Assembly (NCBI GenBank): GCA_977862235.1
Contig: OZ374564.1
Span: 1,302,001-1,366,000 of the forward strand
Length of the DNA: 64,000 nucleotides
Direction of reading: 5' to 3'
Source: Dudresnaya verticillata
Lineage: Eukaryota
Below the pieces are notes generated by a model. The model did not search any database. It had not been told where the DNA came from and saw nothing but the letters and a program-made list of their open reading frames with translations. The position numbers were made by a program, and so were the translations under genes. Below are positions 6,016 to 62,017 of the stretch, one piece after another. The stretch's first letter is position 1; every line of letters begins with the position of its first letter.

Positions 6016-6019
6016 ACCT

Positions 6020-25419: not shown

Positions 25420-25420
25420 C

Positions 25421-25433
25421 TGGTCTTCCGACC
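25421..25433 (+). promoter_or_regulatory. Primer binding site, possibly for tRNA-Tyr
   Basis: TGGTCTTCCGACC lies 1 nt after the LTR. The complementary tRNA end (..GGAAG-A-CCA) implies C1:G72 and A73, which are eukaryotic tRNA-Tyr identity elements (inference). Confidence 0.7.
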
Positions 25434-25487
25434 TAGAAGTCGCAGAAGACCCTATCACCTCTTGCGTCGACGCGATCGAGGCCAAGA

Positions 25488-32527: not shown

Positions 32528-33725
32528 GGAGGGGGCCCCAGGCATTCTTTGCCTCAGGCATTCTTTGCCTGTTATTACCCTCATCCAGGCATCCTTTGCC
32601 TTTTTCCCAGCGACGGGAACACGTGGGGCCTAAGCCCCACGGTAAGGGCATGAATTGCGGCTGCCTAAGCCGGCGGCCCAAGCCGAAAGCACCCCGCGCC
32701 AATGGCAGAGGCCAAGGAGCAGGGGTGCTCTGCGAACTGCGCATCACAGGGACGCTGGGCACGAGAAGCCACTGAGCCATCCAAGCCGAAGCGCCACCGA
32801 CGTCGACGTCAAGTGGCAGCTGCACGCAGATGGCGGAGGGCAGGCGTCGACGCCCCCTTCACCAACGCCGCGCCGCGGCCGCGCGTAATATTCGGCCAGC
32901 ACCCACTGACCTGGTGCCTAGCCGGGCGGGGTGCCAACGCGCATAGCCCCCACGACGATGTGGGGCACCAGAGCCAAGAAGGCCGGCGTCCTTCGAGTTG
33001 CACCGCTGCGCTTCGACGCGTGAGCGGCACAACCACCGCGACGATGGGAAGGCCGAGGGCACCGCGGCAGACGACCGGCCCCTGCCAAATACAGGCGTGC
33101 GCTTACCCATATTTGGGACGCGTGCGCCCCACAAGCGCAGAGGCGCAGATTTGTGTTCAGGCTACAGTGTCTACTGTAGCCAAAACACAAATAATTGGGA
33201 ACGCCCAATGGGGTCCGACACCCCCGGGCCTCTGCCCACTCATCCAGGGGCATCGACGCCCCTGGCCTGGGGTTGGCTGCACAAGCCGCCGCCACGCTCG
33301 TGGCTACTCCCGGCGGAGGGGACCCCGTCGACGCGGTCACCTCCGGCGCAAAGCCGCGACGCCACTAGGGGCACCCGCTCCGCGCTGACGCTCCGCATCG
33401 ACGCGGCGTTGCGCGCGCTGGCAGCCCCCTGTGTGGCGTCGACGCCAGCACTGCGGACCGCCACCCGCTTCGACGCGGGTCAGGCACAATAGCATCCATG
33501 AGGAGGTGGGGCGTCGAAGCCCCACCACCTGCTACAGCGAGCATAGCTCGCACGCAGCCGCGCGGTCGAAGGCGCAGCTGTTGAAAACGCGTCGACGCGG
33601 ACCGAAGTCTTCGCCCACCCCTTGCCCTTTAATGAACCAGACACGCAGAGGCGGTCTTAAAACTAGCGAGGCGATCGACCGCCTCGAACTAGGATGCTTC
33701 TACAGCATAAGCCACTACGGCATAA

Positions 33726-36700: not shown

Positions 36701-36798
36701 TCGCGGCTCAGCGCGGGCACACCCGACGTGGCATCGACGCCCGTCACCGACGGACGCCCGGGAGCCCGCTGGCCAATCCCGGGCGCCGTCTTGGCCAC
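33726..36798 (-). pseudogene. Long antisense extra ORF of the Gypsy element, unknown function
   Basis: ORFs 35182-36798 and 33726-35045 can be joined by one stop and one frameshift (~35100); the N-terminal part recurs at 37712 and 39361. Confidence 0.6.
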
Positions 36799-36948
36799 CC
36801 CACAGCGTGCGCGTTGTAACGGTCGCGACCGAGGCGTTCGCGCTTGAGGGGGGTGTAGTGCCAGGGGGTTCCCCCTTTTTTCGCTTTCAAGCGGGTTGAT
36901 ATTCCGCGTCTACCGACGGGCGACCGCCAACGGCGCGCTCAACCCACC

Positions 36949-37695
36949 TGTGGTGCAATGGCCGTACGCGGCTGTAGAACACCCCCGAGAGTTCGGGCTC
37001 GGGAGGGTAGCTGCGCGATCACGCGAGAGTATCGCGTAAACGCGGTGGTAGAGCTAGGAAGCAACCCGGCGGCGGACTGTAAACACCGTCGGGTTGTCTG
37101 TGGGCGTGGACGCCAAAAGTAGGTGACCACCAGTGAAGGGGCGTAGACGCCAAAGGTGAAGGGAGGATGAAGGGATAAGGGGAGGAGCGGAAGGGGTAGA
37201 AACGGGGAAATGAAGGGAGCCGAGCGCGGCGCGGGGAGGAGCAGCGGGGAGGTGCGCGTAGGGAGCGTCGGGCTGGCGGTTGGCACGGGTTGCGCTAGCC
37301 TTAGCCCGCGGTGACGCCGAGCAACGAGCTCGTGGGTCAGGCGCGGGGGAACTCGGCTGCAGAGCCCATGCTTGGGGTTGGTTTACTGAGGGTGGCCGGC
37401 GCTACTCGCCTTAAGTCCCTGGCCACGGCGGTAGGATAGTTAGGGCTACCATACACTACCTACAATAAACTAACACTGACACCTCAGTGTACCTAGTGTA
37501 CACTGAGTGTCGACTGCTGTAAAGGGAAATGTAATTAATAGGAACGCGCGCGGGCAAGCCCAGAATGGGCTGCGCGCGTCCGAAGTGGGCCGGCGTGGCG
37601 ACGTGTGCTATCTAACGAGCACACGTGTGTACGCCTTCGCGAGTAACGCGCTGATCACGTGGTAACACGAAAAGGGGCAATATCGTTGCACTACA
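36949..37695 (-). mobile_element. Solo LTR (747 bp)
   Basis: TGTGGTGCAA...TTGCACTACA with perfect 5-bp TSD CCACC. The minus strand shows GTAG-CGCC..TCAGTAAACCA then a pyrimidine tract, as in LTR A. Confidence 0.85.
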
Positions 37696-37700
37696 CCACC

Positions 37701-38464
37701 CGCGGGGTGGTGTGGCCAAGACAGCGCCCGGGATTGCCCAGCGGGCTCCCGGGCGTCCGCCGGTGACAGGCGTCGATGCCCCGTCGGTTGTGCCCGCGCT
37801 GAGCCGCGACGGGCTATTTAGGGAGCCGCCTTTGCGGCTCCGGAGAGCGAGAGCGGTCCGGCCATCGCTCACCACGACCGCCAACTCCCCGCGTGCTGTC
37901 CCTTGTCGACAAGCACTGCACGCTCCAAGCTTCGACTCTTTCAACCTCCTCCTTCCTTCCCCTATCGCCAGCGTCGACGCGGCGATGGAGTCACGCGAGC
38001 CTATCGCGGGCGGCGCCCCTACGGAAGGGGCGCCGGTCTCCAACCCCGCCACGTCGACCGAGTCAGTCGCGGTGGGTGGACCTGCCGAGCCGGTACCAAA
38101 GGCGGCGGCGTGCGGGAAGGCGCGGCCTTCGACGGCCGCGCCAGCCGCGGAGCAACCTTCGACGGTCGCTGCGGCAGAGGCGCTACCTTCAACGGTTGCG
38201 CCAGAAGAAGCGGCGCCAACGACTGGTGCGCTAGGCGATGACGGGCACGCTCCTGCGTCGGCTTCTGCTTCCGGGTCGGGTGGTGTCGATGCCAACCCCA
38301 CCCCAAAGCCCGCCGCTGACGTCTGGTCAGAGGCGGTGGCCCTCACCGCGGCGCAGGGCAAGAAAGTGAAGGACCCGAGTGGGGCGGCCTCTGCCGCCCC
38401 GCGCCCAGTAGCGGCGGCTCGGGTCTTTCAGCCGACTGGCCCGCCTCGCGCAGGGCCTACAGCT
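37701..38464 (-). mobile_element. Fragment of a related Gypsy 3' internal region (copy B)
   Basis: Diverged inverted copy of ~36045-36800; cut at 38464 by the LTR of copy C. Confidence 0.8.
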
Positions 38465-39805
38465 TGTGGCATAGACGTCAGGTCGAACTGACGTCTAGCT
38501 GCGCTGGTCTCGTAGTCGCACCCAGACCCGTCGAAGGGTGGTAGCGGTGGTGGTAGAGCGGTGGTGTCGGCCGCGCGCGCCGTCGACGGTCGCGGATCAA
38601 CGGCGTCGAAGCCTGAGCGCGCACGGGGCGTACCGTACGCGGGCGGCAGCGGCCGGATCCCTGCGTCCCCGTCGTGGGGCGGCACGAAGCCGCCGGTGGG
38701 GAAAGGAAAAGGAAAGCCTAGGCGGCTAGGGAAAGAGGGAAGCCGTAGGGCGAAGGACTGGGAAAGAAACCCAAAGCAGAAAGGGGCAAGCCTGGCGTAG
38801 GTTGGCTTGCCTGGATTACTGAAGCCCAGAGGGGCGACTACTATATATACTACAGGGCCTGCGGCGGCACCAACCCGGGAGGTGCGCCGGCGCACCCCAA
38901 CAAGCGTCGACGCGTACGGGTAACGGCAACCCGGGGGCGCGCGTGGGCCAAACGGTCCACACGTACTCAACGGCTCGACGCCGGAGTGCGCGCGCGCGTG
39001 TCACGCACTCAACGGCTCTGCGCCGGAGTGCATGCGCACAGTGCGCGGGACAGCAGGGCGTTCGACTGCCGCTTACACTAGACGGTGCTGCACACTACAA
39101 AACAATGAACGTAGAAATTACATGGGAGTTTCAGTGTCACACGCGTACGCATGCACACACGGGCGCCACTGCGCACTTCCTTACAGTTTAGCGGGGCTTC
39201 GGCGCCACCGGCTGACAGCGTGCGCACAGCAGTGCACACGTGGCGCAACTGGTCTTACAGCTGCGCGTGCGTGGCACAGCTGGTCTTACAGCTATGCCAC
39301 ACAACCCCCCCTCAAGCGCGAACGCCTCGGTCGCGACCGTTACGACGCTCACGCTGTGGGGTGGCCAAGACGGCGCCCGGGATTGGCCAGCGGGCCCCCG
39401 GGTGTCCGTCGGTGACGGGCGTCGATGCCACGTCGGGTGTGCCCGTGCTGAGCCGCGACGGACTGTTTAGGGAGCCGCCTCTGCGGCTCCGAGGGGGGGT
39501 AGTCTAGTCATCGCTCACCATGACCACCAACACTCCCTCCCCCACGCGTACAGCTGCCTGTCGACCAGTGCCATACGCTCCAAGCTTTCGACGCTCTCAA
39601 CTTCCTCCCCCATCGCCAGCGTCGACGCGGCGATGGAGTCACGCGAACCGATCGCGGACGGCGCCCCCGCCGAGGGGGCGCCGGTTACCAAGCCCACCTC
39701 CTCGACTGAGTCAGTCGTAGGGGGTGCGCCTGCCGAGCCGGTGCCAAGGGCGCCGGCTGGCGGGGAGGCGCGGCCTTCGACGGCCGCGCCAACTGCAGAG
39801 CGACC
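38465..39805 (-). mobile_element. Gypsy copy C: 3' LTR (38465-39301), PPT and 3' internal region
   Basis: 837-bp LTR matching LTR A; minus-strand GAGGGGGGGTTG before it; 39305-39805 matches the reverse complement of 36352-36853. Confidence 0.92.
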
Positions 39806-40239: not shown

Positions 40240-40271
40240 ATTCTCAACTAACCCCTTTACTGTTCTTGCTA

Positions 40272-40351
40272 CTTACACATCTGAACCAGGGTCTTCCACC
40301 GTCCACTCCTCGAGGAGTGGACGGTGGAAGACCCTGGTTCAGATGTGTAAG
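40272..40351. repeat. Perfect 80-bp palindrome with no spacer
   Basis: CTTACACATCTGAACCAGGGTCTTCCACCGTCCACTCCTC|GAGGAGTGGACGGTGGAAGACCCTGGTTCAGATGTGTAAG. Confidence 0.97.
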
Positions 40352-41064
40352 GATCCAGCACTTCCCACCCTAAAAGAGCCATCACCGCTAGAGCCCCTCG
40401 CATCACCCCCTCTCCAACCAAGCCAGCCCTCTCAATCATGTCGCGAGTCCACCCCATCATCTGGACCCGGAGCCAGACAGTTGTGTCCAGCTCCTCCGCA
40501 GCCAGTGCGCGAGCCTCGTCCAGCCCAGCGCGCAGGGCACGGACCTCTTCAACCAGCGCCAGCGGGGCTGGGTCGGTCGGTAGCATTCTGGCTGTATATG
40601 GCCGACCTCCGGCCTCGGTCAGCTTCCTTTTGTTCAGACGCATGTCACTCCATGTTGGTAGCGGCGCTGAAAATGATCCCGATAGAGATGCAACTCTCAA
40701 GCTTTGTGTTATGAAGTTACGAAATTACCTGCAGGGCTGATGCAGTTGATGTCGTGCACGTCACGGCAACAGTAACCACCTAATTCAGGACTGCAAGTCC
40801 TACAAGGCAACCTCGCACATTGACTGAGGTCGATGTCCACTCGTTCGCGCGTTAGTTTCGACAATTCAGCATTACTAGGCGAGGCATGACTCTCGACGCT
40901 GCTTCGAACTATCGCTGCAACCGCTTTCAAGCATCAACTGAATCCTTCCTGAAGAAGCCGAAAATTTGCAGGAAGCATGACGGGGACTGTGCATGCGTTG
41001 ACAGGGTCGGACCCAGAGTAGGTTCGGCTAATGTCAGAGAAGGTCGTCCTCGCTTATTTACAGA

Positions 41065-41530
41065 ACAAAGTTGTTGGTAGTATGTCGAAGAAGGAGTCCC
41101 ACGTGGTATCAAACAACCTGCCGCTGCATCGTGCGTTCTCTGCGTTTTTGTTCGATACCAAGGGACGCATGCTTCTCCAACAACGTGGAGCGAAGAAAAT
41201 CACCTTTCTGTCGTTCTGGACGAAAACCGTATGGGCTCATCCGCTCCACACGCCTGCTGAGCTTGGTCGGGAGGACAGTGGAGATGCGCTTGCAGGGGTC
41301 ATGCGTGCTGCCATGGAAGCTGTCTCATGAGCTAGCTCGGTGTCAAAGAGGGAGAGGTCGGTATGGACGACCTGCACTACATGACTCGCATTCATTAGCG
41401 TTCTGAAAATGACGGAGGGGTGTGGGGTGAGCATAAGATTGATTACGTGTTCATGGCCGTGAAGGACGTAGCGCTATACTGCTATAGCTCCTGAACCACA
41501 TGAAGTCCGAGCAGTACGTATCTTCGTGCT
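41065..41530 (+). pseudogene. IDI1: Type I isopentenyl-diphosphate isomerase fragment
   Basis: LHRAFSAFLF..LLQQR..KITF..WT....HPL; downstream LHYMTRIH, WGEHKIDYV and EV motifs with stops and frameshifts. Confidence 0.88.
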
Positions 41531-43542: not shown

Positions 43543-46500
43543 TCACTCCACCAGTTTGAGGATGGCCAATTTCCCCTCTTCGCGCTGGGATACGCTGGTT
43601 GTGCGTAGCAGTACACCCAGCGTCCTCCCGTCCGCGCCCACTTGCACCGTCATGATGTCCTCCTCGAAACTGGCCATCACTTGCTCCACCCCGTCTATGA
43701 CGCGCACAAGGTCGTTCCGGCAAGCCTCGAAGCGCGCCCGACCGAGCATGGCGTCACCTGCAGCAGGCACTTCTGTTGGCGGCAAAAACTGCCGGCAAAC
43801 GTCTTCCCAGTCTTGCCGCTCCTCGTTCTCGACCTCGGGGTGAATGCACTTTGTCGCCTCGACGTCCCAGACCCAAACCACCCCGTTCTTTGACTGCGCC
43901 ACGACACGCATCCCGTCATTGCTTACCGCCACGCGCTCGATCAGATGCAAGCTCCCCTTCATGTGACGCCCTACCAGGTCCCAGTCTGAATCAACGTCCC
44001 ATACGCGGATCACACCACGTCGCGTTCCTGACACGACTCGGCACCCATCAGCACTAAATGCGACTGCCGAGACCGATCGCGTGTGTCCCAGGAGACGCTC
44101 CCCTACCGTCTGTCCCGTATCGGCGTCCCACACTTGAACTCCGCCTGAATTCTCCCCGGACACCACGCGGGTGCCGTCAGTGCTAACGCCAATGCACGAC
44201 ATCCCGCCCAAGTAACTAGTGAAAGGTCCTTCGCCACTCTGCTGCGATTCCACGTCCCATATGCGAACCGTCCCGGCCGCTGCCGTCGCCACACGAGTAC
44301 CTTCAACGTTAATAGACACGCTCTCTACCCAGCCAGCATGTCCCGTTGAAAGCACCGTCACCAGCTCTCCTGTTTCAGCATCTGTCACTTTGACGGTACG
44401 ATTGCGCGCGCCTGATGCCACTCGCGGACCGCAGGTACCGTTGCCGCTAACTGCAACTGTTGTTACGCCGTCCCTGTGCAAGGTTAGGTACTTCGCCTTC
44501 AGTTTTTCTGCTTTCGTGTCCCACGCACGTACCTCATTTCGAAGAGTGCCGGAAACCACTCGAGTGCAGTCCGGACTAACCGCGACGGCCGCCACCCAAA
44601 AGTGACCTTCTGGGGCCAGTTCCGCTGCTTGCCCTCGTTCAACATCAAAGACTTGGAGTCTGCTATCAGGCGACCGCGACAACACATACGCTCCATCGCT
44701 GTTCTTTGTGAGAGCATCCACCCAGTCGCCAACGCCCGTCAGAGGATCCCCAGTTTCTGCATCCCAAACTCGAGCAGTCCCGCCATGTGTAATCGACACC
44801 ACACGGATGCCGTCGGCCGTTGCCACGACGTTGTTCACTTCATCCCAGTGTCCAAGGAACGCATCACGTACCATTTCCTCAGACTCTGTTCTCCACATAC
44901 GTACTGACCGATCGCTAAAACCCATCACGACAATATCTCCATCTACAGATATAGCCCCAACACGTGCTTCGACTATCTCATGCTGACCTTCTCCAGCTGA
45001 ACTCTCCTCGTCGACGATCCCTCCACCTTCACCATGACGCTGTGTACTCCCAACTTCTGCCCCTAACGCTGTTTCATTTTCGAGCTGCAGCTTCACAATC
45101 TTGCTTTTCCCACTTTCATGCTTCGCGACGAAGAGGGCGCCGTCGCTGTTCGACCCACAACTTGTCACTCCTTGTCCTTCGATGAAACGAACATCATAAA
45201 CTACATATGGAACTTGAAATGTCTCCAACAGAGAGTCATGTGCTCCCTTCAAACACGATGTTACTGCCCGGATCCACGGTCTACGTGCAGACTTCTCCAC
45301 TCGATGTATGAAATCTCCTACCCAGTTTGGTTTCGATTTCGTTGCTAGCAGTCTTGCATATAACTGAAACTAACTGCCCGTTGTGTTCCCCACCCCATAT
45401 AGGAGACTCATTCGCACAATCTTGGACAAAGCCTTTAGAACATCAGCCTTCTTCGCAGACTCGTCCACAGGCGCCGGGTGGGAACCTAGGCTACTGGCAG
45501 TTTCAATCTCACGCCCATCTTGTCCCCATTTCTTCAAATAAGACTCAACATCACTCTCGAGAAGCAAAACAGTGTTCATCGCCATCATCTTGAATAGCCA
45601 TTGGGGGCTGCTAAGCACATTGTACACATCCGGGCCTCTCCCTGCAGCGTGAATAATTCTACACATGTTTCGCACGATGTAGCCGTCATCCTCGACAAAC
45701 GCCGGCCAGCACTCCCCATCATCAATACTTTCCGGTAACTCTGACCTGTACGCTTCCAGTATCTGGTCGAACCACTTCAACAATTCCCCATTTCCTTTTT
45801 CTTCGGCTCCTTTTGCTTCAGACTGTGTGAAGTCGTGTGTAAGGTCGTGAAGCCGGAGCCCAAAACACAGCTTACCTCCAACATGTCGATACTCAGCATC
45901 GGCTACCCCCACCCGTACCATTGCTTCTATCTTCTTCTTTGTCTCCACATCATCCGCAGTGCCCCAAATATGGCGCAGGGCTGGCACAGGAACCCAGTCC
46001 TGTTTCTGAATCACACACAACCGCCGATGCAATTCATGGTAGGTCGGCTGTGATCGGGCTTTCCCTCCCTCACGCGGCTTGTCCAGAATATCCAAGGAAA
46101 CAAGCAGCGCTACACCATACCCTGGATAATTGTCTTTCGTCACCTGCTCTACTAATTCATGGCGTCTGAAAGACTCAAGATATACATTCCATGCAGCCCT
46201 CTTATTGCCGCCCATCGCGTCTCTGTCCGACTTAACTCCCGTTCCACACAGACTCAAAGCAAAAGGTAAGCCGTCGCAGATCTTCAGGATTGCATTAATC
46301 GCTTCAGAACATTCAGCATCTTGCACCTCTGCTTCGACGTCAGCCTCCTCAACCCCCGCTACGCGCAGTAAAATATTCCTCGACTCTGGACCCAACGGAT
46401 CTCGCGGATTGAATGTCACCGTGTCTCCTAGACTTCGAGCCTGTCATGTACAGCATTCTCGTTATGTGTTGTGTAGCACTGCAGTAAACGTGAGTGATGC

Positions 46501-47233: not shown

Positions 47234-50200
47234 ATGCCTCGCACAAGAGAACGTCGCACTGCTTTGCGTCAAAGGCCTGTCACTGCGGACCGACATGCCG
47301 TCTCCGTGAAGGGAGGGAACAATTCCTCGGCCAAGACTATCGATAAGGCGACGGCGGAGACGGCCGCGGAAGAACCCATTCGCAAACAGGGGCGGAAGCG
47401 CGCCCGCAGTAACCAGCCCTGGCACGCAAATCATGTCAGCGTCGAAGAAAGTAGTGCTGTTGCTGAACGGAGAGGAGGTGGGTACGGCTGATCCAATGAC
47501 TCCGGCGTCTCCGGAAGAGGCAGACAGTACAGGTTCATTCAAAGTTAAGATGCATGGAACGTGGTTAAGAGAGGTGCAGCGGAAGAAGGAGACATGGATA
47601 GTCATCTATAATCTCCGTATTCGGAATGGACATGGGGACAAGAGGTACATGTATAAGTATCCCGGTATAAAGTCTCCCCCCACCACTCTAGCTGGTCTAA
47701 ATGTGGGTATTCATGTATGGGACAGGTAGCAAGTCCGCACTGTGAAGCCGCAACCTACAAGCGGTGCTGGAGAACCCGGCGTGGCGACCGGGGAAGCTTG
47801 CCCTCGGATAGAAATGGAGCAACCGGGTGAGAGGCACACTGTTCGTGCCCGGACGTCAACTAGGCGGTCAGGCCGTAGGGGGGTCGGGGACTTGCTCATA
47901 AGCGGACGGTGACGAAAAAAATCACCCGTACCGGTCAGTCTGATCCCAGCGCTCAGCCACACCAAGAAGGTAATGACCGCACTACCCGCCCGTATGTGCC
48001 CGCGGCCGTACCAATTAGAGGGCAAAGAAAACACGGAAGCTGGGTTATCAAAACTGGAAAGTAATGACGCGGCGCCGCGTGGGAGCGCTCCAAAACCAGC
48101 CGAGGCTGAACGGGAGAAAGGAGATTCCGGGAACGGCGCACAAGAAGACAATACTCCCGTCGACACTACAGCAGAAGAATGTGCGGGAGGTCGTGATCAC
48201 TAGTCTGAAGAAGAGCATCCTGACGTCGAGACTGCAGACGATGGGGAGGATGCTGATTCCGACACGCCGGAATGGCACCCCTCCGAAGGGGAGGAGATAA
48301 CACTAGAAGGGCGTGGAGACGGCCAGGCTACTGCTAGGACGAGCCGGAAGAGGAATTATAGACATGATGCTCGTCCGAAAGGAACCCCATCGGGGCATTT
48401 GATGGCTGCGAAGAGGAGAAAGGTAGTGGAGGTGATGGAGATGCAGGATATCTCAAACATTTTCTGCTGCCAAACGAAACAATGCTTCGGAACCATCGAG
48501 TCAGTCTACATCAGGACTGAGTCACGCAAAATGATGGACAAGAATCGCGCGGAAAGGAAGCGATACCTCACGGGACTACTGGAACCCAACTCCAACATGT
48601 ACTTCTTCAGCGGCCGGCCGGTTTGTTACTCATTTCTGGACAAGGCTTTCGGTTTCTCTAGAGACCTGCAGTCGGCAGTGAAAGGGACAAACAAGAGCCG
48701 CGAAAGGAAAGGGAGGGGGCTGATAGTTGGTGGTACTTCTACGGAACAGATGGAGGTGATAACTTCGTTCTTGGAGCGCCTCGCAGAAGTCTCTGTTGAT
48801 TCGAAACCAGACAAGGCTGAAATCCACCTCCCCTTCTATGAGAAGCTCGCAGTCTATAACACGTTTGTGACTGAGCACCGCACTCTGTACCCTAACAGAG
48901 CAACACCATCACAGAGCTACTTTTATAGTATCTGGCTCCGCAGCTGTCCGCACATTAAGGTCAGGCGAACTCACCGGTTTTCAAAATGCTCCGAGTGCGA
49001 GGAGATCAAAGATCTTCTCGCAAAAGCGGCAACGGATCTAGCGGGAACCGAAGCGCTTCGCGAGCGGCGGGCAAGGCACGTGAGAATGGTCATGCAGGAG
49101 CGAACAGAATATCGCAAGAAGTGTGAGATGGCTTCGATGTATCCGCAGAACTATTGCTCACTCATCATCGACGGTGCTGACCAGTCCGCATTTGGACTGC
49201 CACACTTCCACATCAAGGTGAAGGACACACGCGGACACGGAATGAAGGCCAAAGTAATCGGCGTTCTAGAGCATGGCCAAGTCCCACATCTAAACCTTTT
49301 CACGATGACTGCAGAGTTCGAAACAGGCGCAAACCATGTCATCGAAGCTTTGCATCGCGTATTGATGGCACGCAGAGAGAGGATGCCACTGAAGGGTACG
49401 TTGTTCCTCCAGGTCGACAACTGTACTAGGGAGAATAAGAACAGGTTTATGTTCGGCTACTTGGAGTATCTCGTTGCTATGGGTGTATTTCCGGAAGTGC
49501 ATGCGTCGTTTCTCCCCATCGGTCACACGCATGCCGATATCGATCAAGTTTTCAGCTGCACTTCGAAGAGATTACGCGTTCGAGACGCCATTATCATGGA
49601 CGACCTCATCCACGAACTACGGCAATCATACACTCCTCAACCGCGTGTCACGGAGATGTTGCAGATTATTAATTTCTCCGGGTTGTGCAAAGAGACCAGA
49701 TGCCTCGGGCGTACCGAGCCCATTTCAGAATATCGGTACTTTAGGTTCAGTGCGGAAGGAGCTAAAGACACAGACGCCGGTACGTTCAAGACTCTCTGCG
49801 AAGTGAAGAGGGGCTGCAAAGACTCTTGGAAACCGTTACATACGCGAGATGGCCAGGGGGATTTTTGTTATTTCCCCCCAACCTGCACCGGACTCCACCG
49901 ACTCCCTGTCGAGCACCGCCAGATGAACACGAAGTAACCAAGCGTCTACGATCCGCCGAGACCAGAATCAGCAATCACAGTAAGCTACAGAAGCTGTTGG
50001 CACTTTGTGATAGAGTTTACGAGGACCGTGAAGACCCATTCCACTGGGCATTGGCGGATGTGTTTGAGTTGGAAGGGGCTTACAAACCGGATGGGAGCGG
50101 CCCTAGCGCACCCTCGGAATCGGGGTCAGACGCTGAGAATGTAGTGGAACAGGACCTCACTTACACAAAGAACAGCTTTGTAGCCGTACTAGGCGACGAC

Positions 50201-50565
50201 TGTACCGAAGGATGCCCGTTCTGGCTTGGGCAGGTGATGAATTGGGAGACGGATGGGGGGGCAAGGTTACCAATTTGCAAGTAGAGTGGTACCAGAGAAG
50301 GAGTACTCGAGGGAATACTTTCACCGGGCGTTATCAGAAGGCGAGAATAACCGATGCAAATGGACATGTCAAACCGTGGAGCGATACGGTCCCGGGGAAG
50401 TCGGTTTTAGTGGAGTTCGCGCGTTTAACCAACTCTGGAATACCCGTCAGGGTGCAGCGAAAGATCAGGGAAGCCCTAGAGATGCGAAAGAGAGGAGACG
50501 ATCCGGAAATTAGTACTTCGGTAGAGGCGGGGGGACCAGGAGCAAATGGCATGGAAAGCAAATAG
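47234..50565 (+). pseudogene. Putative DDE/D-type transposase (DUF7869-like), disrupted
   Basis: 47433, 47973 and 48399 share a frame, broken by stops at ~47727, ~47910 and ~48201. Motifs FSKCSECE, SLIIDGADQ, LQVDNCTRENKN, FLPIGHTHADIDQ; frameshifts near 49860 and 50255. Confidence 0.82.
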
Positions 50566-53500
50566 CTTGGGGTGAGAGGGAGGCGAAGCAGGAATAAAGT
50601 TGTGTCGCTAGTGGCAAAATGGGGTCAAGATTCTGGGCGAGAATTGGAAAAGGGTTAGAGTGTATGCATGTAATGCCACGGAACAGAGTGTGCAGGCTAG
50701 CCTCATGACGCAGCTGCGTCATGAGGCAGCATCTTTGCTGGGTAAACCGGATTGCTTGTACAATCACAGTCGTGTTGTAAGCAACCTTAATGCCTGCAGC
50801 ACGCCAAATAAGTGAGAAAAAAAGAACCACTGTTCTCTCTTATGCACTGATACAGAATGCAATTTCGGCTTTCTATCAACCACACGGGTTGTGATTAACG
50901 TGTCCGACCTGCCAAATCGTACCTTGCACACTTTGGGTGCGATCACACCGCGGCACCCGCGGGTGCCCCCAAGTGAAGGGATGGTTCTACCCAATACCTC
51001 AAGATCTGGCGGCGTGGAGGGTCTCAGGGGCTCTGGGAACCGCGCTCCCGCCATGGTTGTTGCTCGTCCGCAGGTGCAGAATCCGACACCAATGTTAGCA
51101 GGAGACGGGACGGGCTACATGACTTATGAGCGTGTCCGCGTGATAGTTCAGATGCTTTGTGATCTCGGGTCCTGTTCTGTCCTTTTGTCTGGGGATGAAC
51201 TAAGGCTTGCAGTCGAAGCAGGCACGGACATGACCGAAACTGTTTTATATGCCAATGGGAAGACCTTGCAGGGGCTCGCGTTTGCGGTACATTTGCTGGT
51301 TTTAGGTCAACATTGACTCAGAGTTTGATCTTGAGCACATTGCTCTGGTGGAGAAGAAGTCAAGGACAATCGCGAGTGTTCTCATTCGTATTAATCCGCA
51401 TGCAGATTGATAGCATGTGCACATTGACGCTCAGGTCCATCCATTCATCACTACTGGGCTGGCGAGCAGCACGTTTGGTGTCCGCAATTCACATCTGCAA
51501 CGATTTTTGAACCTTATCGAAGAGGAGACTTGCTGCGCTTGATCGGAGTGCATTTATATCTAGGCATTCCGGACGTATGATGTACCCTGGAAGCCGCCGG
51601 TCTCTTGTAAAGGTATGAAGCTATACCATTACCTAATTTAAAAGTAACCTTGTTTTGGTTTACCAGGACCGCGACAAGCTCAATCTTGCTGTCTGTCGGT
51701 AGGCATTAAAGACAGATCCTCCTAATACAACTAGCATGCCAACCACAGAAAAGTAAACAAAGTCAGACGGTAGGACCTCTAAGGCCCCAACAGAGTGCTC
51801 CACAGAGTAGACAACATCAATCCCTACGGCAGCAACCTGATCAAGTTGCTGCCGTCGGGAGTCGATTGTGACTTTCACTGCCATACAGTGCTGCGACCGC
51901 TACCTGTCTCAGATCTGCAACACGATTGCCTCCGGACATGAATCTTGTCCAAGGGGACGAAAGTTCTAGCAGCGGTGTATACGAAAATGACCGTTCCATT
52001 TAGTCCACAATATTGCGACGGGCAGGGCTTCCAGCGTCCACGAACAGTTTGGAAACAAGAGCAATCTGCCCAGTGTCTAACCGCATGAGGATAGGTTGCT
52101 CTGTGAACCCATGTTTCTTCAGGGTTACATTCAGACCATCCTCTCGAGTGCCAATAAGAGAGCTGCAATTCATTGCACGTAGCATCCTGAGGGGTGTTTC
52201 CGATCCCGTTCGAAGCCTCCTCTGGTCGTTACCGTTCGAAAGAGACGTTGACAACATGCACACAGGCAGCTGGCCACAAACGCCTGTACCGATACCAAAA
52301 ATGTTTTCAGATAAAGGCCCAACAGCTGAGCAAACCATGCCAAGGACCATATCGCGTATAGCAGGCATATTCTTGAGGGGTTCGTACAAGTCGATTACGT
52401 TGATTTCCTGCTGCAGCAGAAGAGTGTTCCAGGAGCTGTAGACAAACACATTACAGCTCTTCACTACGAAAACAGGACCTACGGCATTATTGTGCATAGC
52501 AATGTCCAGAACTGAGCCTTTCCGACATTCAATAGCATTGCGTGTACCAGCATGTTTTCTTTGTCCTCGAGGACAGATCTAAAACCACCAAACGCACATC
52601 TACGTCATCGTACTTGAGCCATAGTTCACATCCCATTGTCACACGCACCGGAGGATCATACAATTGCCTCCCTGCAGTGTATCAGCGGCGACTTCGGAAA
52701 CCACAATTTGTTAGGGTAATGACCGGTGCTACGTCTCGCTCCTTGCAAGGAAGCCGTGCACCTTGTGGCCGCTAGCCCCGTATGACAGCCAGCCGCGGTC
52801 GACCTGCCCATTCGGAACGACGTCACATCCCTGCAATGCGATGCCCCTTTCGAAACCCTCTCCATCCACCCGCACGACGTAAGCACAAACACTCGTGCCC
52901 TTCTGCCTGCGGATCAATGGTAGCTTGTTCAGCCTGGAATTCCGACAAGAACTTCCCAAATATGGCAGTGCCAGTTCCGAAGCTTACTGCCTTCACAAAG
53001 CTACCGGTCTCTCCATACCGGCACACGACGACAACAAGCTCCCGATGGATAGAGGCGAGAGCACAGAGTCTCTCTCCGACATGATTCTTCCACAGGAGTT
53101 CCCCTCCTCCCCGCGTGTTGTGCCCGTAAAGAGACCCAAGCGTGGACAATCCGACAAACAGCGACTTACCTGGGACCTCTTAGAAGGCGCCGTCAAAGAG
53201 ATGCACCCGCACTTCCTCCCGTGCCCACACATCAGCGTCACCACCATCTACCCACAAGCGACCGCCTGGGGCCGATCTTAAGACTGTCGTGGCAAGCCGC
53301 CAGGTGAGTACGCGGTTGCCGGTTTCCAGCTCTGCTTGCAAAACGCCTATACTATCACTAGTCCAGTTCACGTTGTTGTACGTTACAGCCAGCCCCGTCC
53401 ATGCGTGCACAAGAACGTTGGGATCATCTTGGGTGCATGGCCGCACAACGAATTGGACATCATCTGAGGAGACATTGCATCCTCGGCGCGAGCACGCGCG

Positions 53501-54059
53501 CGCGTCTACGACATACTTCACAACGCACGAACAAGACTGCGAGGTTCATTGCGCGGTTGCCAACCTAAACAGCCCCATGCACGGTTGCAAACTAGGCATG
53601 CTTCGTCTTGACGAGAATTGTTACGCGAGACGAGCAGGACCCGCGGGGGAGGCGTCGGAGTCTGTGGCGTCTCGAGTGCAGACAGACGTAATGCAGACGC
53701 AGTCTGGGTGGATGTGCTCGCAGTTGACAGCACGACGGATAGGGACGCGGGATGCGCAGGCTACTGCGGTGGCGCATACGTCAGCAAACACATCACAGTG
53801 CGCGACGGGGGCACTTCCGCGAGCGCTTCGCAGTGCGGAGCATTTCCGCAGACGCGGGCTGGGTGAATGGGCTCGCAGTTGACAGCAGGATGGATAGGGA
53901 CCGCTGGAGGTACCGTTACGCGACACAGTGTGTCGCCTCGAGCTTGAAAAGAGAGGAGGTGGTGATGGTAGGAGACGGCGGTGACCACGAGGACGGTGCA
54001 TGCGGTGAGGTTGCGGTGCGTGGAGACATGCTCCGCAGCAGGCGGGTGACCAGCAACCG

Positions 54060-54362
54060 GATAGCTAATTCAGTGAGACTTCCGCCGGAGCTATCGGCGC
54101 ATATGGATTTTTTTATAGCTCCCTGTCGCCGACATATTCGAAAAGCTATTTCTTAGGTTTCCCATTTCGGCGACTATGGGAGCTATGTAGCTAACGGAAT
54201 GCCGCGAGTGTAAATATCTATTTTCTTAGGTATTTTGATTTCGGGAAACACGGGAGCTATATAGCTCCCGCGGAGGAGGAAATCAAAAAGCTAAGAAAAT
54301 AGATATTAGATTTCTCCGGCGCCATTAGCTATTGGCTGATATTCATATTCGTTTATAGCTTT
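54060..54362. promoter_or_regulatory. AGCT-rich non-coding island with two imperfect hairpins
   Basis: 11 AGCT in ~300 bp; hairpins 54115-54186 and 54213-54307 (centre CGGGAGCTATATAGCTCCCG). Function unknown. Confidence 0.6.
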
Positions 54363-55374
54363 TCACTTTGGTCCTCCTGCGTTTGCTACTTTTCCCGAGA
54401 CGCCCAGCCGCACCGCTCCGAGCCCGACATCATCTGAAAACGCACTGCCACTCAAGAAAACGCACACCACACAACACCAGCGCCCTTGACAAGGGCAGCA
54501 CACGACTGGAACCCTTTTCACAGCGTAGGTCGAGCCCTCGCCCCCGCACCGTCCCCACTGCTTCCGCCCTTCGCATCCGGCGTCGTGCTCGGTTTAGCGC
54601 TCACTGCAGATGATGGCTGCGTGGGCGGCGACTTTGTTCCGCTTGGAGGGTCCGTCGGCGTCGGTGCTTTTGATGTTTGTCGTGTGTAGCCGCCAGGGAT
54701 TTTCGGCCGTGCGCGGCCGTGCGCAGCCATAGCCGAAAGAGACGATGGCAATCTGCATAGGACGCTTGTCAGCTGCATACACTACGAGCTGTGATAGCCC
54801 AACGCCTGGATATGAGGGAGGCCCCGCAGCCCTCCGCATGGAACGATACGAGATGGGAGCGCATAAATCCATGGCGGGCTGGCCACCGACGATGCGGGTC
54901 TGGGCGGCGCCCGGGGGGCGACGTCTGGCAGAAAGACGGGGCAGTCTGCATAGTTGCGCGCAAGCATGTGTTCTTTGCGCGTGCCGCGAAGGGAGAGACA
55001 AGCGTTGCTGCTGTGATGGAAAGCATGCGCTTGCTCAAGAAAACAACTGGCATCGAAAACTTTGAGAAGGCGACCAGTGGGCATGATGCTGAAAGTAGAG
55101 GAAAGCGAGAGTTGCTACTGCGAATGGTTGCAGACGATGTTTTACGCGTTGTTGATGAGGTGAAAGACTTGCAGAAGGTAGCTTCATAGATGATGAGAAT
55201 CACCCAATGCACACGGAGGGCATGCAGCCGTTTCATGTTTCACGGCGTTTGGTCGCGACGAGCGTGCATGGATGCCATAGTTCCTTCCAGCTGGAAATGT
55301 GCAGTGGACCGTCCGCCGCCCTCGACTGGCAGAATGTACATCCGGTATAGCCCAAAAATAGATGGAGCAGACTT

Positions 55375-58305
55375 TCATGGCTCTCTATCACAACCCTCCA
55401 TCATGTGAAGATCCCATGCGAAGAATGCGTTTAAGTCTCGCAGCAGTGCTGGCGGTTCCTCCGGACCCTTAAAAGTGTACTTATACGGCCTCTCCGCGAA
55501 CTCATCGCGAACTTTGAAGGAAAATACAGCCACGAGATGCTCTCCCTCCTTGCCGAGCTCCCGCAACCCGTGCTGGTGTATTTCTGTCTTCAGTCCGTGG
55601 GCGTCGTTACCCGGTTGCAATACTGCCTTCCCAACCTTATCTGGACCACACAGCAGCCAAACTGCGTCACCACCTTTGAGTTGCGGTCGATCGCATGACA
55701 GCGGTTTCTCCCTAGGCTTTCCTGTACGTTTCCCAGACTGTTGCTTACCTGGGGACATCATTAGAGTCTGTGATTCCCTTTCAGACTGATCAGTACGTAC
55801 CCTCTTCGTGTCCGGCTGTTTGTCTATCTGTTTTGCCGAACGCTTCTGTGCTTGGACCCCTGCATCTTGAGAAGACCCGTTCTGCTTCTCCTCTGCCATG
55901 CGCTGCAGGCGTGCACGAGCCAGTCTGTATGTTTCCGGGTTTCTTTCGACGAGGTAACACTCTCTGTCTGTCCGAAGGCAGGCAATGCCTGTAGTCATTG
56001 TCCCCGCATGAGAGTCTAGGACCGAGCCGCCTTCAGGGCAGAAGGTTATGATGATCTCAGTAAGTGCATCAGGATTTTTCTCCTCCGTCAGAACTAGTGC
56101 CCTGCTAGTCCCTGGCTTCATGAGCTTATCTCTGGGTACGGGAACAGAGGTCATCACAGCAAACTTTCGTCGCTCCTTACACGAGATGAAGTGGTACGGG
56201 CTGGAGAGGTCTGGAGAGAAAGAGTTCTTGGATGTACCCTTGCGCCTTCCGAAGGCTGCTGCCTCAGCCCCATTCTGCAGTCCCTTCTTGCGACTTATCT
56301 GGACAGTAGTTGTGTCTTTGCAGAGTAAGAAAGGGTACTGCGGACTATCGAAATTGTTGTCGGTAAGTGCCTTTTGAAACAACGGGAATTTCAAGAAGCT
56401 GCAGAACAGAAACACCCAACCACCCTCCTTCACAACACGTCCACAAAACTCGCAAAGGCGCTTGATGTCTTCTTCACTGAAATGGTTTGCGTATGCAGTT
56501 CCAGCATTTGACATTCCCTTCAGGGTACCATACGGAGGGTCAGCAAGCACGAGGTCAAAGAGAGGACTGCATTCATTCCTGATTGATTGGTCATATTCCT
56601 CCCACTTCATCTGATATGTTCGTATCCTGCATTTGGAAAGCGGGTCCTTCTCCTCCACATCAGAACCGGTATCCAGTCCCTTCGACTTGCGTGTTGAAGA
56701 AACAGAACGACTACCCGGTCCAATACACTCGTTCGGGATGTCATTGTTACCAGCTAATGCGCCTGTGTCGTTGTCGTCTGTAGGATCCAGGACCGATTGC
56801 GTATTCTGCCTCTGCGTGTCAGTTACAGTATCCTTAACGGCTTCCGACTGCTTTTGGCCACCAAGGGCCCCCTTAGAGTCTTTTTCTTTCCCCCCTTGAG
56901 GTTTTCCATCAACTTCAGAGCTCGTCTTATCAATCTCAGAAGCTGAAACTATTGGCTTCTCAGTTTCTCCTATGTCTGGAGATGTATCTTTCCCAGAATC
57001 AGTTTCTGCTTGGAACTGGTGCTTGAATTTCTTTTCCTTACCTGGAGCTTGTTGCGGGCATTCCCTTCGATAAGCGGCTATCAAGGGTTTGAGCACATCG
57101 TGGTCATTTCCGAAGTTTGCACGCACCTCGTGGTCCAGCTTCGTTGAGTGAAGGAGGTTCTGGCGAATGACGTTCATACCTTCAGGCCAACTCTGGCTCT
57201 CGATAAGGCGTTCGAATTTCCGTGCTTCCTTCATTGCTGCTTTCGCCCTTCCAAATTGTTCCAGAGTCTGAAAGCTGGTGACTGACCGGAAACTCTGAAG
57301 TCGATGTACTTCGCGTAGTCGGTACGAAGTTGAAATCTGTATTTCTACGCCATCCTCCAGTTTGTTCCCATTCATGAAGGCGATTGCAGACTTCAGTGAT
57401 GAAATGTGGATGAACTTTCTGTAGACTCGGCAGTCAACCTTCCTCATTGCTCCGTCCTTGTCGAGTGTTGTCCCTTCCTTGTCTCCCGTCATCTTTGCAG
57501 CTAGATCCGGTCTCTCGTCATTTGTAATTTGTCCAATTGCGTGAATTACTCTCGTATCCAACCGCATAACTGTCTGAGCAGTCTGTTTAATGGTGTTGTT
57601 CCGATATAACTTCGAACCGTCATACGCCTCCACAATTTTTGGGGCATTTGGTCGTTTCCCAGTCTTGGCCTGCAACCTCTCCGCCTCCTCCCGCAGACCG
57701 CGGACCAGGTCAAAAAATGTAGTCTCGATAAAGTATCCCTGGTCGTGTTTCTCATTCTGATGTCGTGCCAGCTGCCGGAGCTCATGGACGTTTTGCCCAC
57801 TCTTCAAAATCGTTACAGGCCATGCGAAAGACTGCCAGACTGTTGGGAACTCCTCCATTAACTCCAAAATAACGCAATGTCTATGCAAGCCGTCAACAAT
57901 GCCGTACCATTTGGAGCGATTGTTTGCCTTCTCCAAAGCCTCCTCCTCCGTGTACTCCTTCCCTTCCTCTTTCATATTCTTGAAATACGCAACGACGTGA
58001 CCCCGCAGAGACCCTGTCATTTCGATGACAATTGGAGAGTCAGACCCGGCAACGTACCCAATAGTCCCTTCACCGCCTTTCTTCTCTGATGAGTGCAGAT
58101 GAACGCGAGCTTTGAGGCGTTCCACTCCGGAGCGCACCACGGGTCTTATTGCTGTTAGCGGGAAGCACGCCCTGGGGTCAATTCTCATATTCACGGAACC
58201 CTCCATAACGTCAGAAAACAATGCCCTCCTCATGCTTGCAGAAGAGCAATTTTGGTCCGCTTCAGATTGTGTAACAGCACCCTTTCCTGAACGTTTCTTG
58301 CCCAT
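55375..58305 (-). CDS. ParB/Srx-like domain fused to a beta-class DNA amino-methyltransferase (probably N6-adenine) and a C-terminal transposase-shared domain
   Basis: Intact ORF (open to 58410; first ATG at 58305). YGIVDGLHRH; DLVLADPPYG (motif IV) precedes EEKNPDAL and GGSVLDSHAGTMTTGIAC..RECYLVE (motif I), the beta order. Confidence 0.88.
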   Translation of the reverse strand: MGKKRSGKGAVTQSEADQNCSSASMRRALFSDVMEGSVNMRIDPRACFPLTAIRPVVRSGVERLKARVHLHSSEKKGGEGTIGYVAGSDSPIVIEMTGSLRGHVVAYFKNMKEEGKEYTEEEALEKANNRSKWYGIVDGLHRHCVILELMEEFPTVWQSFAWPVTILKSGQNVHELRQLARHQNEKHDQGYFIETTFFDLVRGLREEAERLQAKTGKRPNAPKIVEAYDGSKLYRNNTIKQTAQTVMRLDTRVIHAIGQITNDERPDLAAKMTGDKEGTTLDKDGAMRKVDCRVYRKFIHISSLKSAIAFMNGNKLEDGVEIQISTSYRLREVHRLQSFRSVTSFQTLEQFGRAKAAMKEARKFERLIESQSWPEGMNVIRQNLLHSTKLDHEVRANFGNDHDVLKPLIAAYRRECPQQAPGKEKKFKHQFQAETDSGKDTSPDIGETEKPIVSASEIDKTSSEVDGKPQGGKEKDSKGALGGQKQSEAVKDTVTDTQRQNTQSVLDPTDDNDTGALAGNNDIPNECIGPGSRSVSSTRKSKGLDTGSDVEEKDPLSKCRIRTYQMKWEEYDQSIRNECSPLFDLVLADPPYGTLKGMSNAGTAYANHFSEEDIKRLCEFCGRVVKEGGWVFLFCSFLKFPLFQKALTDNNFDSPQYPFLLCKDTTTVQISRKKGLQNGAEAAAFGRRKGTSKNSFSPDLSSPYHFISCKERRKFAVMTSVPVPRDKLMKPGTSRALVLTEEKNPDALTEIIITFCPEGGSVLDSHAGTMTTGIACLRTDRECYLVERNPETYRLARARLQRMAEEKQNGSSQDAGVQAQKRSAKQIDKQPDTKRVRTDQSERESQTLMMSPGKQQSGKRTGKPREKPLSCDRPQLKGGDAVWLLCGPDKVGKAVLQPGNDAHGLKTEIHQHGLRELGKEGEHLVAVFSFKVRDEFAERPYKYTFKGPEEPPALLRDLNAFFAWDLHMMEGCDREP

Positions 58306-60053
58306 CCAGCCAAAAATGTAATTCAGCACTTTTGAACAAACGGTCGCCGTACGTCTTTCCAACTGGTTGCCGAAGTTGTTTCCAACTGGTTGTGTTAAGC
58401 TGATGAGCACGGGATAAGCGTTGCGGTTTCCACGAAGAGCACTTCGTGTTTACAACAATATGTCCGTAGTCAGGTCAGTGGTCACTGCATTGAAAGACAA
58501 TATATATCATGCCGGTTTCCAGCTTTAACCTGGAAACGAAGTTTGTCCGCATGACTAACAGCCTCACGTACGGTTTTAACTTTGCCGGAAAGATAGTTTG
58601 AGCCCTGTACCACTGGTGGTGCCCTGATACATTCCGCGAGATTACATGAAGCTACAAATCACTGCAGGGTTCTATTGGTCGTCGGTAAATATATCGACGT
58701 ATTGTGCCGTAGGGGTGTTCGCCCTAAGTTCGTACTTTCTCAGAAAATCTTTGGAATTCAGTTCTAACCATCCAACCGTACAGTGATTCCGATTCACAGC
58801 TGCCCTACTAGGGTATCTAAACGATGCTCAAGGCGGGTAAGAAATGGGCATACGAAATAGTTCCACAACGTGGAGGGGAAATTGGAAGTTCGTGTGCCTG
58901 CGTAGGCACACTCCCTTGGACTGGGGGTGATGTGGACGATTCGCAAACGTACAGTCATTCCGATTGTACCAACATGAAGGTGTTCCTCAGAAACGATAGG
59001 AATAACCTCGGATTTTCGAATCGGCAAGAGGTTACTGTCCGCCCACACAGAGTCGTTTAACATTGACATTTCCTGAAACCTGCGCCTCCACCCTGCAGAT
59101 ATGGTCATCATAAGACCACTGCAGCACCGAAACAAACTGATGATCACAATCTGCCATCGGATGCCACGACAAACGTAAGTATGCGTGTTACCCAATGATG
59201 CAAGTAATATCAAGGTCAGGGAAATGATTAATACCATACGTGAGACCATAATACAGCCTGTACCAGTGTGTCCAAGTGATCCCAGTAAATACGTTCCAGA
59301 ATTGTGCACAGGTCAGCATGCCCTCGTTCTAGCAATACAGAAAAGGCCTATTCTGCGGAGGTTTACACAGTCTGATCTGCGGTTCCACCTAATATCTGGG
59401 CGGTGTATGTGAACTATCCAGCAAGTTGAGGCTGCATTTTTGCAGGGTCCTCATACTGCTGCCGGTATAAGTGCTTCGGTACAGTACGGTCATTCTGATT
59501 ACCGGAATTTGAACGTGTCCAATCGAAGATGTATCCCTATTTGTATGCAGAGAATGCCTAAGCCTCGTACACAGCCAAAACCATTAGCTACAAGTGTTAC
59601 TTTCAGTTTAAAAGCGCGCAATCGTTGCATTTCACAGACCTCCTCGACGGTACTGAGGAACAGAAATACGGCTGTACACACAGAGAAGAGGATTTCTTGC
59701 CGAAGTGTAGTCATTCCTATTACTATCGACATTCTCATTGACCTCCCGGTGTTGCCGGACGACATACAGTCAGGTTTCTGCGCATTTCATGGCCTCATGC
59801 GCTGTGAATTGAGGCGCCGATTGGCAGAGCAGCAGCGCCGCCTTAACGGTGACTCTTTGCAATTTTCGGAGCGCATAATGCGATCCTTGGAGGTGAAGGA
59901 TGAAGAAAGAGTCATGGAACAGAACCGTGCTCGGGAGTTTGAGGTCGTTATGGGTCAATACGATCATGACCAGAACATGCTCACAGTGGTATACCGTGGG
60001 GGAATGAAGAAGCTTGATTAGGTATCGGGGGATGCTTTCTCCGGATCCGAAGC

Positions 60054-61247
60054 TCATGAAATCGATGCCGTCTTGGTCGAGGCTATTCGCCTGGCAAGCG
60101 AGCCAGTACGGGAGATGGAGCGAATGTGCCGCCTTCTCCTGACTTGGCATTTTGCCAAAACTAACGCAGAAGGGACTGTGGAGGTAAAGGAGGCAAGGGT
60201 GGCCCGTGCGGAGCATGAAGTGCGCGTCATGTATAAGAAAGCTTCGTCGTGCAAGTACTTGGAGACGCGCGTCGGTCTTGGCTACGTGTGCTTATGGCCG
60301 TACCTTTCGTCGTCGGTAATGTTAGAAACGAAAAGACGTCGACGGTTGTATTCTTGACGAGCGACGTAATACGAATTACGCTCCTGGCGGCTTTTGAATT
60401 TGCCATGTCCCCGCGAGAGTACTTCCAGCACAATAGCTGTGTCGGGATTTGACATCAGCTTCTTTTCCTCTCTCTGCTGAATATCAACTAGGAAGGCCTT
60501 GAAACCTCCAACTCGTTCCGTTTGTCCGTAGTTCTTTGCATTTGCCTGTCCATGAACGCGTTCCATAAAGGTAGGAAAAACAGAACGGTCGAATAGTCTG
60601 ATCCCCAGTGCCTCAAGGCCGGTGAACCGTTTGCCTTCGGAGATGCAGTTGTCAATTAATGCGAGTAAGTTGGACTCACCAATGCGGCGGACCATATCTT
60701 TGCCAGTTTCCTCTGGTCTGCGCAGGGCATTGAAATCCAGACACGACAGATCGTGGCTCTTCCCAAGCAGTTCATCACTGACTTCTCGTGCAGGCTCCCT
60801 AGGTACGAAGTCAGACATCTTCCCCTTACGTACGAGGATGTGCGTTTGGACTCCCACAGGGGGTAGTACATCAGCGGGGGATTTCTGCATCAGGACCTTG
60901 GATCGCTATTGTTCCTCTGGGCTATATACCGTGTACTTTTTGTACCTAAATACAAGATTGGATTCATCATGCCTGCCACGTCGAATGTTCAGACAGGCGA
61001 AGTTTAACCCACTATCCTCTCGAAACCGGGACCAGCAAATTGATTCCTTCTTCGCCACGTATTCGGGGCAGTTAATGCTGCACATGTTGATATCGACGCT
61101 TGTTTCAATACATGTGCGAGCCCGAGCCCTGTATTGTGGAAGGGGAGTATGCGCCGGCAAAATAGAGTTATCAATAGTGGTATCAGAACGACCTTTCTGG
61201 GTTCTCGTCTTCATTTCAGCAACCTCGGCTGATGGTATCCCTCCCAA
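60054..61247 (-). pseudogene. Unknown reading frame interrupted by single stops
   Basis: ORFs 60906-61247, 60282-60890 and 60054-60254 are in one frame; no family recognised. Confidence 0.35.
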
Positions 61248-62017
61248 CTGTATTCAGACCCGTTCAGGCATTACGAAACGAGCTGGGCACAATTATGCTT
61301 TAAGACCCACACTGAGACGCATGGCACAGGCAGTAAACAACCGAGGTGCATTGGCAATTGCCGCATGTATTATATCCCTTTCATGAAGAGGCTATATACG
61401 CCTTGCAGGCAGCACCATACCGGGACCAGGAACCCGCAATGGCAGCTGACGAGTCAATGTGAAGTGGGTCAACAAATGTCGCCAACAGCGGAAACATGTC
61501 CCTTTCATGAGAACGTCCTGCTCATTTAACACCGTAGATTGTCAGTGCTTCAGTTATTGAGTACACTGAATGTATATTAACCCTGACGCGTCTGGGGAGC
61601 AGGGTCGTGGGAGTTTGGACGCTATTCTCAATCGCAATGGTGGTGGACTGGAAGCGATCCCCCTGAAGGTTGAATGAGCTTACCAAACGCCGCATTTGTT
61701 TTCCCCAATGGAGCTTGCGAAGTTGCATCAATGGATGGGGCTACGGACATGGTTGGAACGGGGAACCTTTGGGGTGTCGACAACGCAATCGGTCGCGCGC
61801 GTGGTTAACCGGGAAACAGCTGCAGGCTTATACATTTTATTATCATTACTTAACGAACTACGTAGTGTTGGGTGCGTGTCATGGAATGGCCATACTTGTG
61901 TCTGCGAGTTGTCATGACATCGGCATGTGGCGTCCCATCGTAGAGAAATACGGGCGGGCGGGTCGTGCAGCGCGGTCGGGGAGCGACGGGCAGGGCGCGC
62001 TGACGAGGTGACGGCAG

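Follow-up and report, generated by a model that had tools for sequence, protein, structure and literature searches.

A predicted barrel module shared by the transposase and the DNA methyltransferase of a eukaryotic transposon family

A 64,000-nucleotide stretch of the Dudresnaya verticillata genome (GenBank assembly GCA_977862235.1, contig OZ374564.1, positions 1,302,001 to 1,366,000 of the forward strand; hereafter the window, numbered from its first letter) holds a decayed transposase gene and, on the opposite strand, an open DNA methyltransferase gene. A preliminary description of the window proposed that the N-terminus of the transposase and the C-terminus of the methyltransferase share a domain of about 90 residues, and that this paralogous module links the two proteins, making the methyltransferase a native component rather than cargo. 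The locus thus raises the question of whether the module is real and whether it is what joins the two enzymes. The features that bear on this question are the following.

47234–50565, plus strand: decayed DUF7869 transposase gene (PF25273, E 2e-46; start at 47234 guessed from the upstream basic frame)
47433–47729, plus strand: copy A, a ~95-aa module at the transposase N-terminus, ending at a premature stop (profile E 1e-29)
50140–50481, plus strand: transposase C-terminal domain, BAH/chromo-barrel-like as judged from the model of a paralog at 2931–3299
50700–50727, no strand: perfect palindrome of 28 nt, some 135 nt beyond the transposase stop
52000–52578, within 51875–53545, minus strand: EMC1-like broken host-like fragment (PF07774, E 9.6e-6, 25.8 bits against a cut-off of 27)
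54060–54360, no strand: palindromic array holding five GGAGCTAT copies whose orientation alternates, 1 kb beyond the methyltransferase stop
55375–58305, minus strand: open 976-aa methyltransferase gene, its last ~100 aa being the module (PF01555, 42.8 bits against a cut-off of 26.7)
55384–55674, minus strand: copy B, the methyltransferase C-terminal tail, predicted SH3-like barrel (profile E 1.5e-31, pLDDT 92.8)

Copies A and B are a true paralogous domain. In a single BLASTP comparison they share 27% identity over 97 aa (E 1e-11), and tblastn against the window gave an E value of 1e-7. Both stretches lie where the preliminary description had placed them, and its alignment of copy A with the methyltransferase tail withstood shuffling: the Smith–Waterman score is 96, whereas 3000 shuffles compared with the whole methyltransferase peaked at 60 and 200 compared with all six frames of the window peaked at 61, which rules out chance similarity. 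The local alignment score at the DNA level is only 21; the duplication must therefore be old, and a recent DNA duplication is ruled out as the source of the two copies.

The window transposase is laid out as the module, a low-complexity linker, a Cys-rich, putatively DDE-type core (48204–49937) and a predicted C-terminal barrel. It is broken, with three in-frame stops between copy A and the core (47727, 47910 and 48201) and two frameshifts, located by the transposase profile near 49870 and 50258. The first stop falls after the WD motif, as in methyltransferase tails, and copy A could on this account be the tail of a lost upstream methyltransferase, not a part of the transposase. However, no methyltransferase sequence is present upstream of copy A, and P0002, an uninterrupted homolog of 978 aa with the top search score among the best 120 of 172 transposase homologs, aligns through its residues 16 to 799 with 47448–49967 in a single frame at 40% identity. 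This alignment runs across the stops, indicating that the module is the N-terminus of the window transposase. Copy A also groups with the N-terminal copy of P0002 in a tree of 53 domain copies (96/80), and an origin from a lost methyltransferase is highly improbable. An intron removing the stops is likewise unlikely from sequence, as the linker of P0002 is open and the window gene is also frameshifted. Thus, the module had been correctly described as sharing the frame of the transposase core, but it is not continuous with it in this copy, as three stops intervene.

Conserved Asp, Cys and His positions were found in the transposase alignment, and we infer that the enzyme is of the DDE type. Its C-terminal domain was modelled from the intact paralog (2931–3299, plus strand; pLDDT 91.5) and matched the MTA1 BAH domain with a Z score of up to 7.1 (rmsd 2.3, 72 aligned residues), with chromo and PWWP domains tied. 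The model suggests that DUF7869 transposases end in a BAH/chromo-like barrel, possibly a chromatin reader on a DNA transposase. The paralog belongs to a second DUF7869 transposase of the same subclade at 1007–3302 (plus strand), which has one frameshift near 1440 and lacks the module; a 27-nt palindrome (3432–3458) lies about 130 nt after its stop. Hairpins after the transposase stop, found in both window copies, had no fixed place in 14 loci and are not a general feature. A scan of viral contigs with the transposase gave no matches.

The module is predicted to fold as an SH3-like barrel. AlphaFold2, given 82 rows, returned a small beta structure with the pLDDT listed above, for which the nearest solved folds were Tudor, KOW, BAH, Sm, CAP-Gly and PWWP barrels, tied at Z 4.0–4.7; the top neighbours showed rmsds of about 3–4 and 9–17% identity, with no family prominent. 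The Tudor, PWWP, KOW and BAH barrels have the SH3-like arrangement of the model, at Z scores of at most 4.7, and values below 5 support only this common barrel arrangement, that is, a fold class and not a function. Foldseek with the model found nothing at E ≤ 0.001 in the PDB or viral libraries, and searches of PDB sequences and of the Atlas yielded no family name; Atlas matches to CBM48 were of low recognition and disagree with the predicted fold, and were rejected. The strand-glycine, HG motif, hydrophobic strand, terminal tryptophan and ~90-aa length of the module may loosely resemble the pattern of the transposon-borne Tnp1/En-Spm-associated Transposase_23 (PF03017) and DUF8039. Single-sequence hmmscan, which leaves room for remote homology, matched neither PF03017 nor any other Pfam family (0/82 members at E 1, 0/11 at E 10). 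Positions conserved over the 82 rows are H39, Y70-P-Y72, P81, Y91 and W93-D94.

The methyltransferase is composed of a ParB-like N-terminus, a helical region, a linker, a beta-class N6/N4 DNA methyltransferase domain, a second linker and the module. Its DPPY (motif IV, at 589) precedes SAM motif I (at 764), and both are intact; the alignment to its relatives is unbroken from end to end of the protein, its best solved relative is DpnA (E 5e-14), and PF01555 was matched by 21/21 family members at E ≤ 1. The N-terminus carries the motif VDGLH at 137 and a DG-HR motif that we take as a ParB-like mark, and the region aligned with the ParB-like region of the third class of module carriers described below (hhalign E 4e-5, prob 71), with one weak DndB match. 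Scans of viral and metagenome contigs with the methyltransferase gave no matches. Motif IV reads DPPY in only 9 of the 19 relatives covering that position, and therefore not all relatives need be active. The 10 others include P0165, P0170, P0185, P0191, P0212 and the gene at 338–3121 of locus L008; the degenerate motif suggests that these lineages are altered or inactive.

How widely is the module distributed, and on which proteins? An 11-sequence module profile run against 1.84 billion representatives gave 189 matches at E ≤ 0.001, of which the 150 listed include four profile seeds. Among the 150 matches listed, the seat of the module is the C-terminus of a ParB-like/N6_N4 methyltransferase in 24, the N-terminus of a DUF7869 transposase in 11, and the N-terminus of a ParB-like/2OG-oxygenase-like protein in 9; the remaining 106, mostly short pieces, are unclassified. 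Proteins of the third class are long; a ParB-like motif and, at the end, an oxygenase-like HxD...H pattern were recognised in them by eye, and Pfam gave a weak DndB match in only 1/9. All three classes are predicted DNA-acting enzymes, and in each the module holds a fixed terminal position and is joined by a long low-complexity linker. The preliminary description had left it to intact transposase homologs to show whether the domain belongs to them, and here eight of the best 120 of 172 do carry it: a profile made solely from two methyltransferase tails recovered their N-termini, and a deeper module profile recovered the same eight. The other 112 of these 120 lack the module, and a search of the 90 transposase loci that we fetched did not find it in any.

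In a transposase tree of 123 rows, the module occurs in 11 rows, all within one 40-row clade, and starred branches force at least three changes. This patchiness might indicate that the module is functional on the accessory enzymes alone and that the transposase copy is a passenger of recombination within the element. Against this, the H, YPY, P and WD positions are still conserved in deeply diverged transposase copies, and 14/16 transposase copies form their own group in the domain tree (83/90), such that a passenger copy appears improbable. A single origin of all transposase copies was not rejected by the domain tree (AU p=0.092). The methyltransferase tail is the more common seat of the module, a copy having probably been gained or kept by the transposases of one subclade.

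The linkage of the two genes was analysed across the family. Upstream sequence of 2.5 kb or more is available in 20 of the 90 transposase loci that were fetched, and in 7 of these 20 a methyltransferase-family gene stands beside the transposase, divergently in six and in tandem on the same strand in one. One of them, L008, was in the methyltransferase profile but had been found first by tblastn. In addition, for closer relatives, 14/37 methyltransferase contigs, and 13/19 of the long ones (above 5.5 kb), are identical in exact length and source to a transposase contig, compared with a mean of 0.21 and a maximum of 3 in the jitter control. One of the 14 matches (4334 nt) is too short for both genes and was set aside as chance; the remaining 13 represent 7 independent families. 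Because one match is impossible and 8 of the 14 come from two near-copy clusters, this linkage by length is indirect. The transposase tree and the methyltransferase tree, the latter with the tail removed, co-diverge (r=0.88, p=1e-4, 10 pairs including the window), and the nearest relative of the window methyltransferase is P0293, the partner of P0002. From these comparisons of sequence, the methyltransferase is a native, co-diverging component of the family. Methyltransferase or ParB-like genes also adjoin distant DUF7869 transposases in other metagenomes (L015 at 1095–8339, L017, L024, L032 and L053, the last by eye only; the accessory gene of L015 encodes 1335 aa, with a PF01555 match at E 2e-18), indicating that the pairing is wide.

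The module does not pair the two enzymes as a rule. In 7/7 linked families exactly one partner carries it, a count based on called proteins, in which frameshifted copies or exons left uncalled could be missed. The carrier is the methyltransferase and not the transposase in six of these families, while the P0002/P0293 family is reversed, with the module on the transposase and not on the methyltransferase, although the absence from P0293 could likewise hide an exon or frameshift. L008 has both genes and the module in neither (six frames), and the module is therefore dispensable; both partners carry it only in this window. Pairing of copies is thus not a general rule, and heterodimerisation through the two copies, as first envisaged, is weakened. 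A complex prediction for copies A and B, run without alignments and with the partner fold uncertain, scored 0.00, which counts neither for nor against pairing. A broader proposal is that the module is homotypic, its copies on transposase, methyltransferase and 2OG-oxygenase-like protein binding each other, also in trans, to form a cut-write-erase complex. Such a complex would account for the presence of one domain on element enzymes of three classes and for the two copies in this window, and Sm-like and CAP-Gly barrels are among the folds tied as nearest structural neighbours; the single carrier in all seven linked families and the 112 transposases without the module speak against it, and we consider it unlikely. 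Hence, of the earlier proposal that a paralogous module links the two proteins, the paralogy holds and the link as a rule does not. Its corollary fared likewise: linkage and co-divergence bear out a native methyltransferase, while the module is not what makes it native, given the 112 module-free transposases among the best 120 of 172, L008 and the third carrier class.

The locus itself is less regular than the family. The two genes converge across 4.8 kb, and they may be two separate truncated elements of one family that lie this far apart, a reading confined to this locus that leaves the family-level result untouched. The convergent arrangement stands in contrast to the six divergent and one tandem pairs elsewhere, the EMC1-like fragment, hairpins and the palindromic array lie between the genes, and the transposase carries five lesions and the methyltransferase none. 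A second transposase of the clade is present at 1.0–3.3 kb, and neither terminal inverted repeats nor a 4-bp target duplication was found for this one decayed copy. On the other hand, both genes fall in matching subclades, and no remnant of a second partner was found on either side. We regard two elements as a plausible account, though one short of an even chance; one element with an insertion is a possible alternative. The palindromic array has a z of −8.0 and contains 5 of the 6 window matches of its 8-mer, a motif picked after the array had been seen. We consider it a candidate element end or ParB-like binding array; a comparable small array lies past the methyltransferase stop in L008.

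Other features surround the two genes. Upstream of the methyltransferase (58794–61253) are long frames at 59413–60357 (plus strand) and 60282–61253 (minus strand); each is interrupted by one stop, and neither has a Pfam match or a counterpart in the fetched loci. A WD40-repeat gene with an upstream helical domain occupies 43543–46443 (minus strand), with one stop at 45370, and is presumably STAND-like. A broken host-like NUDIX fragment (41022–41406, plus strand) resembles isopentenyl diphosphate isomerase by eye. Gypsy-type LTR retrotransposons lie at 24583–39301 and 61.9–64 kb, together with nested repeats and an inverted copy, 95% identical, at the end of the window. The window further contains three ~860-nt tandem units in one frame (14555–16551; weak RWP-RK match, E 0.17), an 84-nt near-perfect palindrome where two repeats meet (40270–40353), and a non-coding repeat with internal inverted arms in two copies (5341–6390 and 9862–10535; 83–88%).

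Transposons with ParB-methyltransferase genes have been published. As described in the accessible text of PMC12477816, Sola1-1_Ec32 of Ectocarpus (21.5 kb, 282-bp TIR, 4-bp TSD) encodes on the opposite strand a ~1100-aa protein with ParB-like and N4C/N6A DNA methyltransferase domains, which was proposed to attach to and modify the element that encodes it; such ParB-methyltransferase proteins are there called a possible new class of accessory proteins. The family studied here is similar in having a ParB-like plus methyltransferase gene opposite the transposase strand, in the window and in 6/7 loci. The window transposase is known to Pfam as DUF7869 only. No shared module is mentioned in that portion of the paper. 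The accessory genes of red algal Plavaka elements, in the available part of Petroll et al. (10.1101/2025.02.11.637652), include PAG2 with PF01555 and PAG3 with ParB-like and 2OG oxygenase domains, the latter beside inverted-repeat arrays. The third carrier class fits the description of PAG3 by eye, a comparison made by description only. Taken by itself, the likeness to these published red algal genes would suggest a red alga as host. Unlike in the PAG genes, ParB-like and PF01555 regions here share one chain and the transposase is of DUF7869; in the part of that study available, no domain common to PAG2 and PAG3 is named. The SET domain, a PAG2 feature, had no match in 21/21 methyltransferase members at E ≤ 1. 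The ParB-HTH-fused chlorophyte-type Dam, a eukaryotic N6A methyltransferase whose N-terminal region is of the ParB type (Iyer et al., PMC4738411, as far as accessible), belongs to group 2, whereas here motif IV comes before motif I, PF01555 is matched and the structure matches are to DpnA/CcrM. Of other sources seen in part, bioRxiv 10.64898/2026.05.21.726589 deals with retrotransposons only, and PMC6431247, PMC3627910, PMC5751038 and bioRxiv 10.1101/2021.09.26.461848 provided context only. In the literature covered, which took in few subscription papers and was without Repbase reports and bioRxiv supplements, we found no description of the shared module, and self-modification by algal ParB-methyltransferase or ParB-oxygenase transposons stands as a proposal with no test. 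Judged against the same sources, the module and its three seats seem to be new, and so does the co-divergence.

These data can be combined in a model in which the module is a portable, tethered targeting barrel, binding chromatin, DNA or one common partner, a reading based on sequence and predicted structure that we hold to be somewhat better than an even bet. In this model the module would have been shuffled between proteins of a transposase-plus-DNA-methyltransferase transposon family. The ParB-like region would bind repeat arrays belonging to the element itself, and the DPPY enzyme would write N6-methyladenine (or N4-methylcytosine) in the element or its vicinity. The module, usually present once per element, terminal and on a long linker, would help the enzyme that bears it, whichever that is, to find the substrate. 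In the window copy the transposase is dead and the methyltransferase frame is open. Among the tied neighbours of the fold, the KOW, Sm and CAP-Gly barrels do not read chromatin, a point against the model.

More tentatively, and with considerable doubt, the module may be a new reader or docking domain of algal transposons that addresses an adenine methyltransferase as writer, a 2OG-oxygenase eraser and a transposase with a BAH-like barrel to one mark or site. If so, one copy per element would be enough and could be swapped between enzymes, and a eukaryotic DNA transposon would mark itself, with DNA methylation coupled to cutting or target choice. A compact domain found on a writer, a putative eraser and a transposase offers a 100-residue handle for a direct binding test, and its profile marks accessory genes partly missed by Pfam. 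For the family as a whole, the co-divergence marks the methyltransferase as an old and stable partner of the transposase lineage, not an occasional cargo.
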